A stretch of DNA of 64,000 nucleotides from assembly GCF_054482525.1 (NCBI RefSeq), contig NZ_CM137006.1; one strand, 5' to 3'. Under the pieces are notes generated by a model, which was given only the letters and a program-made list of their open reading frames with translations, was not told the origin of the DNA and ran no database searches. The position numbers and the translations under genes are program-made. This document shows positions 5,528-44,474 of this stretch, piece after piece (position 1 is the first letter of the stretch; every line of letters begins with the position of its first letter).

Positions 5528-5818
5528 TCACTCATCCAGCCGTTTAGTCGCGTCTTCATAAACGGCTGAGTTCTCTCTCTTACCAATAGCTATCACCAAC
5601 ACGAGCAACTCTTTATCGTTAACCTGATAAACCAGGCGATATCCCTGTGTGCGCAGCTTAATTTTGTAGCAGTCCGGTAAATCCCGCAGTTTAGCCGATG
5701 GATTGCGCGGCCTTTTCAGCACATCCTCAAGCTTTTTTTTAAATTGTTCCCGGACTGTCACGCCCAGTTTTTGCCACTCTTTCAGCGCCCGCGGATCAAA
5801 CGCCAGCTCATAGTTCAT
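5528..5818 (-). CDS. RelE/ParE-family type II toxin (mRNA interferase-like)
   Basis: About 97 aa from ATG at 5816-5818 (ORF-track frame extends further upstream); RelE-like sequence; start overlaps stop of upstream antitoxin gene. Confidence 0.72.
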   Translation of the reverse strand: MNYELAFDPRALKEWQKLGVTVREQFKKKLEDVLKRPRNPSAKLRDLPDCYKIKLRTQGYRLVYQVNDKELLVLVIAIGKRENSAVYEDATKRLDE

Positions 5819-6050
5819 CCAGTCGGACCTTAATGGCCTCTTGTGGGTTGGCCAGTCGTTCCCTGACAGTGCGTAACAAGGCTTCTTCACTATCACTGAC
5901 AGTGAGCGTTTTTACCGGCATTCGTCCATTTTCCGCAACGTACTGAAACAGCAGTCGCACTGCTTCAGTAGGCGTGATATTTAATTTTTCCAGCACCGCA
6001 TAAGCCTCATTTTTCAGTTTGTCATCCAGGCGGACGTTAAGTGTGGCCAT
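5808..6050 (-). CDS. RelB/DinJ-family antitoxin
   Basis: 80 aa; N-terminal MATLNVRLDDKLK resembles ribbon-helix-helix antitoxins; GGAGG Shine-Dalgarno 5 bp upstream; 11-bp overlap with toxin gene. Confidence 0.7.
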   Translation of the reverse strand: MATLNVRLDDKLKNEAYAVLEKLNITPTEAVRLLFQYVAENGRMPVKTLTVSDSEEALLRTVRERLANPQEAIKVRLDEL

Positions 6051-6074: not shown

Positions 6075-6110
6075 TGTAATGCATTATAGCATTACATATG
6101 CATTACATTC
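6075..6110. promoter_or_regulatory. putative toxin-antitoxin operator: palindrome TAATGCATTA plus three GCATTA(C) repeats
   Basis: Read directly from sequence 25-60 bp upstream of antitoxin start codon. Confidence 0.4.
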
Positions 6111-8835: not shown

Positions 8836-9630
<795 letters not shown>

Positions 9631-9734
9631 ATCAGCATACTTGTCCTTAGCCTTCTGCAGTGACAGCTGGTAGTACAGCGTGCTTCTGGCCAGCCCTGCA
9701 GCCTTTAACAGGTCAGACTGGCAGTGTCCGCACC

Positions 9735-10265
9735 TCAGGCTCCGGATGACTTTCGTTTTTTCTCCAGCTCCTGGCGCTTTTTTTCCAGGAGATGCTCCTG
9801 CATGGCTTTCAGATATGCATTTTCTGCGCGAAGATAACGCAGCTCATTCTTCATCTCTTCCGGCGTCATGTTTGCCTCGTTTTCATGGGTATCATCAGAA
9901 CGGGTCATGCTTTTCTCCTTCCTGCGCCTGATAAAGGCCTCATTACCAGATTTGCGGTAGCCTTTTATCCAGTTTTTAACCGTGTTGTGGCTGGGAATGT
10001 TAAACCGGGCAGCTACCCGGGGTAGAGACTCAGAATGCCCGAGAGCATAAAGAACCACGCAAAGTTTATCTTCAGGAGAATAGCTACGCTTGTGTCTGCA
10101 ATCCAGTGCCCGAGGACCGTGAAGAAGAAAAAGATTAATCCAGTGTGAGAGGCTGGTGTGAGAAAGTTGAAAGAGTTTTGCCGTAGAAATGATGCCTGCA
10201 TGACCAGCCAGGTAGTGATTTACAGCGGCAAGTTTTACTTCAAATGAATGTTTCATAAACTGCAC
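9735..10265 (-). CDS. IS3-family transposase OrfA (HTH plus leucine zipper)
   Basis: 176 aa; helix-turn-helix N-terminus and C-terminal heptad-repeat region. Confidence 0.8.
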   Translation of the reverse strand: MQFMKHSFEVKLAAVNHYLAGHAGIISTAKLFQLSHTSLSHWINLFLLHGPRALDCRHKRSYSPEDKLCVVLYALGHSESLPRVAARFNIPSHNTVKNWIKGYRKSGNEAFIRRRKEKSMTRSDDTHENEANMTPEEMKNELRYLRAENAYLKAMQEHLLEKKRQELEKKRKSSGA

Positions 10266-16495: not shown

Positions 16496-16521
16496 AGTTT
16501 CCCCCGTTGTAAAGCGTGCGC

Positions 16522-16600
16522 CAGATAAGACACAACAGCGTCGCATCAGGCATCTCGCACAACCGCCGGATGCGGCGTGAATGCCTTATCCGGCGGCCCA
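16522..16600. repeat. REP elements in ytfR-ytfQ spacer
   Basis: gataagacacaacagcgtcgcatcaggc and gccggatgcggcgtgaatgcc motifs. Confidence 0.6.
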
Positions 16601-17893: not shown

Positions 17894-18424
17894 ATGAGCT
17901 TACTCAACGTCCCTGCGGGTAAAGATCTGCCGGAAGACATCTACGTTGTTATTGAGATCCCGGCTAACGCAGATCCGATCAAATACGAAATCGACAAAGA
18001 GAGCGGCGCACTGTTCGTTGACCGCTTCATGTCCACCGCGATGTTCTATCCGTGCAACTACGGTTACATCAACCACACCCTGTCTCTGGACGGTGACCCG
18101 GTTGACGTACTGGTCCCGACTCCGTACCCGCTGCAGCCGGGTTCTGTGATCCGTTGCCGTCCTGTTGGCGTTCTGAAAATGACCGACGAAGCCGGTGAAG
18201 ATGCGAAACTGGTTGCGGTTCCGCACAGCAAGCTGAGCAAAGAATACGATCACATTAAAGACGTTAACGATCTGCCTGAACTGCTGAAAGCACAGATCGC
18301 TCACTTCTTCGAGCACTACAAAGACCTCGAAAAAGGCAAGTGGGTGAAAGTTGAAGGCTGGGAAAACGCAGAAGCCGCTAAAGCTGAAATCGTTGCCTCC
18401 TTCGAGCGCGCAAAGAATAAATAA
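17894..18424 (+). CDS. ppa: inorganic pyrophosphatase
   Basis: 176 aa; recognised Ppa sequence. Confidence 0.95.
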
Positions 18425-18429
18425 GTTCT

Positions 18430-18480
18430 TCTAGCGTAATAACCCTGAACGCCGGGCTTCGGTTAGTAGGGGTTTTTTAT
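18430..18480 (+). terminator. probable ppa terminator
   Basis: GC-rich hairpin-capable segment ending in ggggtttttt. Confidence 0.4.
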
Positions 18481-18502
18481 GCCCGCGATAAATAAACACA
18501 CC

Positions 18503-18853
18503 TTATTCCACCACCGCCTGCAAACGTAATAACGCCTCTTCCACCACCTCACCCGCAGCCAGACCAATACGCTTTGCCAGCCGGGCGCGTAGATCCATCA
18601 TCCGCACCTGATTCACCAGCACCACGCCGTGCACATCGCCTTCTTCGCAATGTAAAGGAACGCTAAATCCGGCATAACGGGCAAAATTTCCGCCCTGCGT
18701 AATGGGGGCCACCAGCGTCATTCCCAGTTGATTAAAGGCTTGAACGGAGAGCACAAGCGCAGGTCGACCAGCACCTTGCTGTTCATGGCCGCTTGCTGGA
18801 TCAAAGCCAACCAGCACAATGTCTCCCCGTTCAAATTCACTTTTCTTTACCAT
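18503..18853 (-). CDS. chpB: ChpB (ChpBK) MazF-family endoribonuclease toxin
   Basis: 116 aa; PemK/MazF fold sequence. Confidence 0.9.
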   Translation of the reverse strand: MVKKSEFERGDIVLVGFDPASGHEQQGAGRPALVLSVQAFNQLGMTLVAPITQGGNFARYAGFSVPLHCEEGDVHGVVLVNQVRMMDLRARLAKRIGLAAGEVVEEALLRLQAVVE

Positions 18854-19098
18854 ATTTCGTCACCCGCAGGGGTGGATTTACCCCAGACATCCTGCTCGCT
18901 AAGTTCCGTGGCGTTCATGTCACACTGTGCCAGCAGTTCATCAAGCGAGTAGCGCCTGGAGATGGGTGTCAGAATCAGTTGATTGTTGCTCACTTGCGCC
19001 TCCACGCTCTGCCCCGGCCGTAAGTTAAGTTCTTTCATCACAACATTAGGAATGACCATACCTGAACTGTTCCCCCATCTTTTTATGGTAATACGCAT
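18847..19098 (-). CDS. chpS: ChpS (ChpBI) antitoxin
   Basis: 83 aa from second Met; AbrB/MazE-like. Confidence 0.9.
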   Translation of the reverse strand: MRITIKRWGNSSGMVIPNVVMKELNLRPGQSVEAQVSNNQLILTPISRRYSLDELLAQCDMNATELSEQDVWGKSTPAGDEIW

Positions 19099-19113
19099 CT
19101 GCACCTCCTTAAG

Positions 19114-19128
19114 TTATACAAAGTATAA
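19114..19128. promoter_or_regulatory. inverted repeat TTATACaaaGTATAA upstream of chpS (candidate operator)
   Basis: Perfect 6-bp arms read from sequence just upstream of the chpS Shine-Dalgarno. Confidence 0.4.
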
Positions 19129-19270
19129 CTCACGGTGCTACAGGAAACGTTTTACCCCTGCGCATTTGTGAACGCCAGCAGAGTTTTTTATGCGTTAACA
19201 GATATGGAAAGCGGCTCGGAGAGAAAAGCAAAAGGTGAGGGAATTACAAAACAGAATGCGAGTCGTCTCG

Positions 19271-19300
19271 CAAAAAACAACGCCACCCGAAGGTGGCGTA
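19271..19300 (-). terminator. rho-independent terminator downstream of ytfP
   Basis: acgccacc/ggtggcgt stem followed by T-run on minus strand. Confidence 0.55.
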
Positions 19301-19309
19301 TGCGTATGG

Positions 19310-19651
19310 TTACTTATCCCTGTCTAACCAGTCGCCGCTTTCAATTAGCTTTAATCCATCGACGGGTCGTTGATAAACGTACATCCATGCACTCCCGTAC
19401 GGCGTCTGAATCAACTGGCGCGCGTATTCACCGCCCCTGGTGCGCAAGGCATCAAGTTCGGCCAGCGTGGCGTTGTCAATACGATAAACTTCACCGTGTA
19501 CTGTTCCGTTCCCCAGAACTGCGCCTGGATAGTGGCCCAGGCTATACAACTGGTAGTTATCGATACTGAAATCGCCCAGTAACTGGGCATTGGTCATCCA
19601 GTGACTGTTGCCTTGTTTGTGGCGTAAACTGCCGTAGACAAATATTCGCAT
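19310..19651 (-). CDS. ytfP: gamma-glutamylcyclotransferase-family protein
   Basis: 113 aa; recognised YtfP. Confidence 0.9.
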   Translation of the reverse strand: MRIFVYGSLRHKQGNSHWMTNAQLLGDFSIDNYQLYSLGHYPGAVLGNGTVHGEVYRIDNATLAELDALRTRGGEYARQLIQTPYGSAWMYVYQRPVDGLKLIESGDWLDRDK

Positions 19652-19653
19652 TG

Positions 19654-25205
<5,552 letters not shown>

Positions 25206-26150: not shown

Positions 26151-26329
26151 CCAGTTTTTCATTTATCAGCAGTCTGAATTTTAACCCTCTGGCGGCTTTA
26201 CAGTACCTTACGCTATACTAGCCACTGAAAATGCCGGTTCACTTTCTTCGAATCGGCTTTCAATGTGTATTTCACACAAATTAATCAACTTCCCCTTCCG
26301 AGGATCTGGCCTGAAAGGTCGGATAAGAT

Positions 26330-28909: not shown

Positions 28910-29821
28910 TCATACTGGTAACGCTAGTTGCTTTTTTTTAAACGCCTCAATGGTCGATTTATATTTCTCGCAAATCTTTTCTTCGGTAATATCACTATCT
29001 GCGGCCAGATTCGCACTTACTATCGCATCCACTTGTTCGGCTAATTCGACTTGTTGGCAACCTGCATTAACCAGAAAATTATAAATAAGAGAGTAGTCTT
29101 CATCCTCCAAAACAACAGAGGAACCATTACGAAAACGTTCATCCCCTCCATAGATTTTAAGCGCAAAGCCCAAAGATTCTATGACTATGGCAAAATTATC
29201 ATCAATTATTTTTTCGTAAATATACCATCCATCGCATTCTTTAATTCCACCTCCTGGAATTTGGAGGTCAAATTTACCCCGTTTTAATTTACTTACTATA
29301 TCATCCAATACAGCATAACCTAAAGACACGTCACCAAACGCCTGGCGAATATAACCTTTAATCCTTTCCGGTATGTCAGACTGTTTTTTCTGCAGAATAT
29401 CCCAGGCATACAATCTTCTGTTTTGTTCTAACGGAAACTCGCGGTTTTTGAAATCCATGAATGAGTTATACTCATTTATTGTTATGGGAATTTCTTCGTA
29501 TTCAAATCCACTGCCTCGCAATGTCATTATATATTCGGCACCGTTATCTTTAAGGCTGAAACTGATAAGAAACTTATCCATGGTGTTAACAGTTTCATTT
29601 TTTGATGAAAGTACCTGATAACTATTTTTATCAATCTGAGTTGCGCAACGAAAGAACTCCCTCAAAGTTAACAGGCTATCATAATTTGAAATCCAATCTT
29701 TTTTATTAAATGCATGCTGGATATTGTTAAAAAAATTGTTTGAATGTGTTTTTGTATGCGATGATTTTACGAATAACTCCACCGCACCAATAAAATTATT
29801 GTGTCTGATCCTGGGTAACAT
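28910..29821 (-). CDS. ytfI: hypothetical protein, AT-rich
   Basis: 303-aa ORF at the K-12 ytfI position; markedly lower GC than neighbours; no recognisable domain. Confidence 0.7.
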   Translation of the reverse strand: MLPRIRHNNFIGAVELFVKSSHTKTHSNNFFNNIQHAFNKKDWISNYDSLLTLREFFRCATQIDKNSYQVLSSKNETVNTMDKFLISFSLKDNGAEYIMTLRGSGFEYEEIPITINEYNSFMDFKNREFPLEQNRRLYAWDILQKKQSDIPERIKGYIRQAFGDVSLGYAVLDDIVSKLKRGKFDLQIPGGGIKECDGWYIYEKIIDDNFAIVIESLGFALKIYGGDERFRNGSSVVLEDEDYSLIYNFLVNAGCQQVELAEQVDAIVSANLAADSDITEEKICEKYKSTIEAFKKKQLALPV

Positions 29822-30773: not shown

Positions 30774-30962
30774 TTCTCCACCTCGTCTCTGTGAGCGGTG
30801 TTAACTTATTGTTTTACTTATACCCTATCGTTAATGAATGCGCCAACTGTGATAGTGTCATCATTTTCAAAGCGTAAAATTGTGGCATTCTTCACTGTTC
30901 TATAAGTAAGACGTTTATTCTCCCTTTTCTTTCGTATTCCCGATGATAAAAGGATGTCCCTG

Positions 30963-43752: not shown

Positions 43753-44166
<414 letters not shown>

Positions 44167-44474
44167 TTATTCAGCCTCCTGTCTGGGTCAGCCGAATCCC
44201 GGGGAGGCAAGGAACGTGTTAAAGGTCGGCTGAAAAATGACGCGTTATAGTACTGACATACCCCGCTAAACTCAAGGCCAGCCGACAAATAAATCTCATC
44301 CTTCACCAAATCGTACTAACACGCTGATTTGAAGTTCATCACACTTCATTATGGTGTTTTTTTGAACAACTGCATCAGAAATGGTCACCATCAACTTCTT
44401 TATCATTGATTAAAATTAAATCAGAAGATCATCACAGAGGAGAGCACACAAAGTCAGCCGTCGAGGAGGTATCT

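Follow-up and report, generated by a model that had tools for sequence, protein, structure and literature searches.

The window, the 64,000-nucleotide stretch of DNA analysed here, contains two short overlapping genes between ppa and ytfP with a palindrome immediately upstream. An initial annotation had assigned positions 18503 to 19128 to chpSB, described as a known core module of the type II toxin-antitoxin class. This raises three questions: whether the pair is chpSB itself or a related module, whether chpSB belongs to the core genome of E. coli, and what role the palindrome and the sequences around it might play in control of the operon.

Identity of the gene pair

A 901-bp query spanning the pair matched sequences annotated as chpB/chpS in numerous E. 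coli chromosomes at 100% identity, SMS-3-5 and PCN033 among them. Elsewhere in the window, 100% matches were obtained to PCN033, SCU-102 and 19KM1776, which places the window on an E. coli chromosome of that lineage. The toxin scored 226.8 bits against the ChpB equivalog of NCBIfam (NF007320, cut-off 129) and the antitoxin 192.8 bits against the ChpS equivalog (NF008463, cut-off 101), both above cut-off and both over the full length of the protein. Pfam identified PemK_toxin (PF02452) in ChpB with an E-value of 3.7e-25 and a score of 88.7 bits (gathering threshold 23.1), and MazE_antitoxin in ChpS with an E-value of 1.5e-11. An identical ChpS sequence is carried on at least 1000 public contigs. 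The gene neighbours are those of K-12 and SMS-3-5, with the pair lying between ppa and ytfP in the order ytfQ, ppa, chpB-chpS, ytfP, tamB.

Comparison with K-12 MG1655 revealed few differences. ChpB is identical at 114 of 116 residues, R89 and G101 of the window being H and D in K-12, while ChpS is identical at 79 of 83 (differences S12A, V19I, R27Q and T64A). At the DNA level, identity over the coding region is 98.3%, with 10 nucleotide differences of which six change an amino acid. The protein lengths, the 7-nt gene overlap, the Shine-Dalgarno sequence and the palindrome are all the same as in K-12, and the allele of the window is that of PCN033, SMS-3-5 and related strains. The K-12 genes (chpBI-chpBK) have reportedly been described since 1993, in work said to be that of Masuda et al. 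in that year and of Zhang et al. in 2005.

A different member of the MazF family, either mazEF (chpA) or a recently acquired copy of the plasmid module pemIK/kis-kid, would present the same Pfam families, and PemK, at 44% identity, has a homologous operator. However, ChpB scored only 62.7 bits against the MazF equivalog (NF007386, cut-off 120) and ChpS only 34.8 bits against the MazE equivalog (NF007312, cut-off 113), far below the cut-off in each case. The identity to PemK is itself only about 44%, and the pair is chromosomal, occupies the chpSB position of K-12 and is syntenic across genera. The equivalog scores, the K-12 position and the near-identity to K-12 refute an assignment to mazEF or pemIK, and we regard such an origin as having a negligible chance of being correct.

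Judged by sequence and position, the locus is chpS-chpB (chpBI-chpBK), a type II toxin-antitoxin operon of the E. coli chromosome, at its usual site; it is the module itself and not a relative. The initial identification was thus confirmed at the levels of DNA (the 100% match), protein (near-identity to K-12), HMM (the equivalog scores) and position (the ppa-ytfP site), and on this evidence no divergence from chpSB was found.

The overlap of chpS and chpB (ATGGTAA), with the chpB ATG placed within the end of chpS, is the usual arrangement for translational coupling and suggests that the two genes are coupled. An 85-aa form of ChpS, two residues longer, could be read from a GTG at 19104; this codon falls within the spacer between the Shine-Dalgarno sequence and the ATG, and the RefSeq start is the ATG. 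A terminator scan of the minus strand gave no convincing intrinsic terminator for chpB, the fold being no better than those of shuffled sequences, and Rfam and tRNA scans gave no match inside the chpSB locus. The coordinates of all features are collected in Table 1.

Table 1. Features of the chpSB locus, and of other loci in the window that are referred to in the text.
Feature	Position	Strand	Basis or remark
Terminator-like hairpin and U-run (UUUUUU) of the convergent gene ppa	18441..18478	plus	RNA fold
chpB, ChpB (ChpBK) toxin, MazF/PemK-fold endoribonuclease, 116 aa	18503..18853	minus	ORF and Pfam/NCBIfam
chpS, ChpS (ChpBI) antitoxin, AbrB/MazE/SpoVT-type DNA-binding N-terminus, 83 aa from ATG	18847..19098	minus	ORF and Pfam/NCBIfam
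Shine-Dalgarno sequence AAGGAGG, 5 nt before the chpS ATG	19104..19110	minus	Read from sequence; GGAGG kept in orthologues
Perfect palindrome AGTTATAC-AAA-GTATAACT, 8-3-8; putative ChpS/ChpS-ChpB operator	19112..19130		Core 7-3-7 at 19113-19129
C/U-rich sequence flanking the palindrome on its 5' side; can pair, if transcribed, with the Shine-Dalgarno sequence and AUG, extending the hairpin	19131..19150	minus	RNA fold; putative
CRP-S-type core motif TGCGA-N6-TCGCA (TGCGA-GTCGTC-TCGCA) with T-rich 5' flank	19257..19272		chpS ATG lies 166 nt downstream
Intrinsic terminator of the upstream ytfP/tamAB unit, ACGCCACC-TTCG-GGTGGCGT and T-run	19270..19299	minus	Stem invariant in all orthologues
RelE/ParE-type toxin gene	5528-5818		Pfam ParE_toxin
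RelB/DinJ-type antitoxin gene	5808-6050		Pfam RelB
IS3-family element, IS1397 in matching genomes (orfA HTH, orfB rve)	8908-10265		Between yjgA and mpl
303-aa ORF between ytfJ and cysQ	28910-29821		No Pfam match; annotated ytfI or hypothetical in matching genomes

chpSB is variably present in E. coli

Of 5426 complete E. coli genomes, 3097 (57%) were found to contain the chpSB coding region, and a separate search with 45 nt returned the same number, whereas the flanking genes ppa and ytfP are present in 5425. The module is therefore known, as initially stated, but it is not core: chpSB is a presence/absence polymorphism. PCR surveys in the literature also describe its presence as variable.

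Strains without chpSB possess a ppa-ytfP spacer that is shorter by about 500 bp, and two of them, 1506 and Nissle, were examined. Both retain the last bases of chpB together with a fossil of the 5' third of the gene, approximately 70-125 bp long at 72-83% identity, but have lost chpS, the Shine-Dalgarno sequence and the palindrome, and their alignment with the window picks up again at position 19148. The fossil of Nissle is the shorter, and this strain additionally carries esiB, encoding a secretory-IgA-binding protein, beside a duplicated ytfP terminator. In E. coli, the spacer at 18484-19148 accordingly takes at least three forms, containing either intact chpSB, a fossil of chpB some 125 bp long, or a shorter fossil with esiB. 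In the fossil haplotype the flanking sequence is also unusually divergent (87-93%), and such divergence of both the fossil and its flanks suggests that two old haplotypes exist.

A first search for homologues of ChpS returned E. coli variants only. Scanning of contigs yielded at least four loci, and the wider orthologues were reached via an Enterobacter ChpS. Twelve spacers, each covering the interval between the ytfP stop and the start of chpS, were aligned, comprising the window, K-12 and ten further orthologous loci from E. whittamii, Enterobacter asburiae, another Enterobacter, two Lelliottia, Leclercia, Trabulsiella and three further assemblies. The order tamB-ytfP-chpS-chpB is present in nine of the ten further loci, four of which also show ppa downstream; in Trabulsiella, where gene calling gave nothing upstream of chpS, only chpS-chpB-ppa is seen. 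With synteny extending over at least five enterobacterial genera, chpSB is by gene order ancient at the ytfP-ppa site. Together, the fossil and the cross-genus synteny point to the loss of an ancestral module from some lineages of E. coli, as opposed to a recent insertion.

Two observations concern individual records. In two Logan assemblies (L017 and L018) whose loci are closely related to that of E. coli, a 104-aa ChpB was called at 1782-2096, with a start 36 nt downstream of the usual overlapping one; this may reflect a change of start codon or an artefact of gene calling. Separately, ChpB at 99% identity or above was found in seven E. coli records of a plasmid collection, with lengths between 94 kb and 4.9 Mb. 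The longest (NZ_CP134663.1, 4.9 Mb) has the size of a chromosome and was probably mis-filed, while the plasmid record NZ_AP023207.1 (93.8 kb) encodes chpS-chpB at 19509-19856 with 99% protein identity and could represent a captured chromosomal segment or an assembly artefact.

The variable presence of chpSB also bears on a rival reading, in which the locus is in this strain a decaying, inert remnant whose reading frames look intact but whose toxin activity and regulation have gone. Complete genomes without chpSB make up 43% of the total, the two examined keep only a fossil, the majority of the substitutions relative to K-12 are non-synonymous, and ChpB is described as less processive than MazF. 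Against this, both reading frames are full length, with equivalog matches spanning 1-116 of 116 and 1-83 of 83 positions, and many unrelated isolates carry exactly this allele (100% identity). Furthermore, the control region is under visible constraint, and the two ChpB positions that differ from K-12 (89 and 101) also vary among orthologues. Decay to an inert state is thus very improbable. Nevertheless, since six of the ten differences from K-12 alter an amino acid and 43% of genomes have lost the module, selection on chpSB is not strong.

A palindrome upstream of chpS is a likely operator

The coding strand ahead of chpS reads ...CACCGTG AGTTATAC TTT GTATAACT TAAGGAGGTGCAG ATG, the palindrome adjoining the ribosome-binding site. 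A candidate -10 element, TATACT, is located at 19127-19122 in the upstream (minus-strand) half of the palindrome. Because the 8-3-8 repeat extends from 19112 to 19130, the end coordinate of 19128 given initially trims its last 2 nt and should be corrected. When the 211-nt upstream spacer was randomised under a Markov-1 model, a perfect inverted repeat with arms of at least 8 nt and a loop of at most 10 nt arose in 3% of cases, a rate that taken alone is suggestive but not overwhelming.

A precedent for such an element exists in the parD system of plasmid R1, whose "region I" operator, 5'-GGATGTTATATTTAAATATAACTTTTATGG-3', is bound by Kis and by Kid-Kis in hydroxyl-radical footprinting and overlaps the -10 element with its left half. 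Upstream of pemI on an IncF plasmid the sequence reads GAT GTTATATTTAAATATAAC TTTTATGGAGGTGAAGA ATG, a layout that is the same as that of chpS. Region I of parD/pem (GTTATATTTAAATATAAC) has the same outer half-sites as the chpS palindrome, GTTATA...TATAAC, and both palindromes lie 13-17 nt before the ATG, at a shared distance from the ribosome-binding site, and are followed by an (A/T)-rich stretch and GGAGGTG. TATACT of chpS is in register with the -10 element of parD. The two are not identical in design, the parD palindrome comprising 18 bp without a spacer (9+9) and that of chpS being 7-3-7 (8-3-8). In addition, parD possesses a second pseudo-symmetric site 33 bp upstream, whereas chpS has no conserved second site. 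A sequence resembling this "region II" operator, GTTAACGCATAAAAAAC at 19200-19184, is found in E. coli; it is not conserved in other genera and was rejected as a second operator.

Within the 12 syntenic spacers, GTTATACT-T-TGT-TAAC is invariant or nearly so; the mean column identity of the spacers is 75%, and long stretches of them are scrambled. The only change in an arm is an A to C substitution in Trabulsiella, which is uncompensated, while the loop varies between TTT, TAT and TCT. As the arms never covary, this pattern fits recognition of DNA by a protein better than it fits an RNA stem. A similar contrast is seen among E. coli strains. Of the 3097 complete genomes that possess chpSB, 3066 (99%) show 100% identity over the 45 nt at 19099-19143, whereas only 559 reach at least 99% identity over the 602-bp coding region; both counts are inflated by the relatedness of the genomes, although the contrast is still large.

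Taken together, the randomisation, the homology to parD and the conservation both across genera and within the population make a convincing sequence-based case for the palindrome as a protein-bound element. Its homology to the parD operator and its invariance across genera indicate that it is likely to be the operator through which ChpS, or ChpS with ChpB, represses its own operon. The literature searched contained no experiment on operator binding or on the transcription start of chpSB, and transcription-start supplements listed nothing for chpS. A scan of 18300-19400 with the sigma-70 consensus returned no minus-strand promoter, and manual searches likewise revealed nothing conserved, neither a -35 element to accompany TATACT, TATAAC or TAAAAC nor a sigma-54 spacing.

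Control signals further upstream

On its upstream side, the chpSB control region is bounded by the intrinsic terminator of the ytfP/tamAB unit. Immediately beyond this terminator lies a perfect CRP-S-type core motif, TGCGA-N6-TCGCA, the only match in 64 kb where 0.09 would be expected. TGCGA is the half-site of the CRP-S (Sxy-dependent CRP) class of sites, which are 22 bp long with half-sites 6 nt apart, and overexpression of sxy induces chpSB according to a 2025 review citing Sinha et al. 2009. The candidate site probably accounts for this reported induction.

The same sequence was flagged by a scanner as a terminator-like hairpin, raising the possibility of a second terminator. In the orthologues, however, the half-sites survive in part, whereas the 6-nt spacer and the extension of the stem vary. 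Retention of half-sites around a varying spacer fits a protein-binding site better than a terminator.

Between this site and the palindrome, three blocks (GCTGG, TCACA and GTAAAAC; 19179-19149, minus strand) are conserved across genera. They fit no sigma-70 or sigma-54 spacing that could be found, and hint at a possible transcription start further upstream than the palindrome.

Possible control at the level of the leader RNA

A start of transcription upstream of the palindrome would give the inverted repeat a second potential role. In this alternative, the palindrome acts mainly in the RNA, as the apex of a 5'-UTR hairpin that covers the Shine-Dalgarno sequence and AUG of chpS and controls the translation or stability of transcripts started upstream, for example from a distal promoter dependent on Sxy and CRP-S; it would then not be a DNA operator, or not only that. 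A hairpin burying the Shine-Dalgarno sequence and AUG would form if transcription began upstream of approximately 19143.

Folding of the 65-nt leader at 19086-19150 gave a minimum free energy of -22.6 kcal/mol (z -3.8) with both the Shine-Dalgarno sequence and the AUG paired, and comparable leader folds were obtained for E. whittamii and Ent. asburiae. The native 5' flank gave a more stable fold than shuffled flanks in 8 of 11 orthologues (p <= 0.06). The conserved blocks and the CRP-S-like site upstream of the palindrome are compatible with this alternative, and hicAB, with one CRP-S promoter and one repressed by the antitoxin, supplies a precedent.

Other comparisons argue against it. RNAalifold supported only the invariant core hairpin, with a covariation term of -0.17, and swapping of flanks among seven lineages revealed no lineage-specific complementarity (p = 0.21). 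No excess leader stability was seen in Enterobacter P0125 or at the two Lelliottia loci. Moreover, the palindrome arms are invariant in sequence and do not compensate, and the palindrome of parD, its homologue, has been proven to be a DNA operator and has a leader fold that is not unusual (z -1.2). On the RNAalifold and flank-swap results, the long stem occluding the Shine-Dalgarno sequence was rejected as a conserved structure and is retained as a minority hypothesis; a mainly RNA-level function for the palindrome is, in our judgement, unlikely.

Slightly less probable again is a combined scheme of two-level control resembling that of hicAB. Here, a proximal promoter embedded in the operator would produce a short leader with a free ribosome-binding site, whereas a distal promoter, possibly dependent on Sxy and CRP-S, would produce a long leader; here the palindrome would nucleate a hairpin, about 21 bp in length, that buries the Shine-Dalgarno sequence and AUG of chpS. 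If this were true, two-level control would shift the ratio of antitoxin to toxin output under competence-inducing or starvation signals, and a single element of 17-19 nt would serve both as DNA operator and as a translational gate in the RNA.

A second toxin-antitoxin locus and other features of the window

The window contains a further pair of RelB/RelE-like genes (5528-6050), situated between nrdG and cybC. The initial annotation had placed this pair 13 kb from chpSB; the measured distance from chpB is 12,975 bp, and Pfam RelB and ParE_toxin were recovered in its two genes. Upstream of the RelB-type gene, nested inverted repeats TGTAATGCAT/ATGCATTACA (6075-6107) surround a TATAAT. As these repeats flank TATAAT, the accompanying statement that the window holds two type II loci, each with a palindrome upstream of its antitoxin gene, also holds, the counterpart at chpS being the repeat of 19112-19130. 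The RelBE-like pair is present in 389 of the 5426 complete E. coli genomes, so no more than about 7% of them can carry both loci.

Additional features were noted elsewhere in the window. A query comprising IS1397 and its flanks was covered to at least 80% in about 25 genomes, and the element occupies the yjgA-mpl site in about five of the genomes listed. The 303-aa reading frame between ytfJ and cysQ is present in approximately 1600 of 5426 genomes and is absent from SMS-3-5. Rfam matches at gathering level were obtained for naRNA4 (REP-derived; 16519-16595), STnc450 (26211-26268), the ES239 sRNA (30840-30962) and the RpsF leader (44146-44230).

Proposed mode of control

By analogy with MazE and Kis, ChpS is a labile protein that blocks ChpB by means of a disordered C-terminal tail. 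According to published work, ChpS is the protein antitoxin of ChpB in K-12, and ChpB is a ribosome-independent endoribonuclease of the MazF/Kid type that cuts single-stranded RNA at ACD (ACA/ACG/ACU) triplets. A ChpS dimer, helped by ChpB, would bind GTTATAC-N3-GTATAAC through its AbrB-type N-terminal domain. Bound ChpS or ChpS-ChpB would in turn repress an operon promoter whose -10 element, TATACT, would be embedded in the upstream half of the palindrome, an arrangement shared with the parD operator of R1, its homologue. The distal CRP-S site would probably underlie the reported induction by Sxy. We hold this explanation as a whole, combining the identity and orthology of the operon with the proposed repression at the operator and a probable CRP-S/Sxy connection, with high confidence.

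The chpSB module was already known and is annotated automatically, so the refinements made here are annotations and not discoveries, and nothing is overturned. What the second look adds is that chpSB is not core yet ancient at its site, that the palindrome can be assigned as the likely operator of ChpS, and that the perfect CRP-S core motif offers a concrete candidate site for the reported Sxy induction. These points should be useful in studies of toxin-antitoxin regulation or where chpSB serves as a strain marker.

Comparison with related systems

The nearest other systems to chpSB are PemIK/Kis-Kid and MazEF. Among solved structures, the closest to ChpB is Kid (1m1f, E 6e-21), ahead of MazF structures at E-values of about 1e-9, and the GHEQQG, RP and PxT(Q/S)GG motifs align between ChpB and Kid. 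The nearest solved structure to ChpS is that of MazE (1mvf/1ub4), with an alignment over the full length that includes the C-terminal ...E(I/V)W. In Kid, R73 and D75 are the proposed catalytic residues. The ChpB residues aligned with them are L79 and N81, and the Kid mechanism is for this reason not simply transferable to ChpB. By contrast, R30 and T52 of ChpB are the conserved counterparts of Kid R23 and T46 in the alignment, and we take them to correspond to the catalytic residues R29 and T52 of MazF.

The parD (kis-kid) module of R1 and pemI-pemK of R100 share with chpSB the toxin fold and the placing of the antitoxin gene first, at a toxin identity to PemK of only about 44%. They are plasmid modules and serve plasmid addiction, whereas chpSB is chromosomal here; chpB and parD have been described as cross-interacting functionally. 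ChpB-family pairs with approximately 61% identity occur on Burkholderia plasmids, and more distant loci of the family (Massilia, Rheinheimera and Burkholderia plasmids; 55-62% toxin identity) possess short symmetric elements of the TAC-N3-GTA or AAC-N3-GTT type just before the antitoxin gene.

The mazE-mazF (chpA) module of E. coli is a paralogous type II system, with a ribosome-independent RNase of the MazF fold and an AbrB-type antitoxin whose C-terminal tail ends in Trp. It differs from chpSB in its locus and, according to published work, in RNA specificity, MazF cutting at ACA and ChpB at ACD. Finally, hicAB of E. coli is also reported to be induced by Sxy, although its proteins are unrelated to those of chpSB and its gene order is reversed; the two-promoter design that has been shown for hicAB is conjecture only for chpSB.
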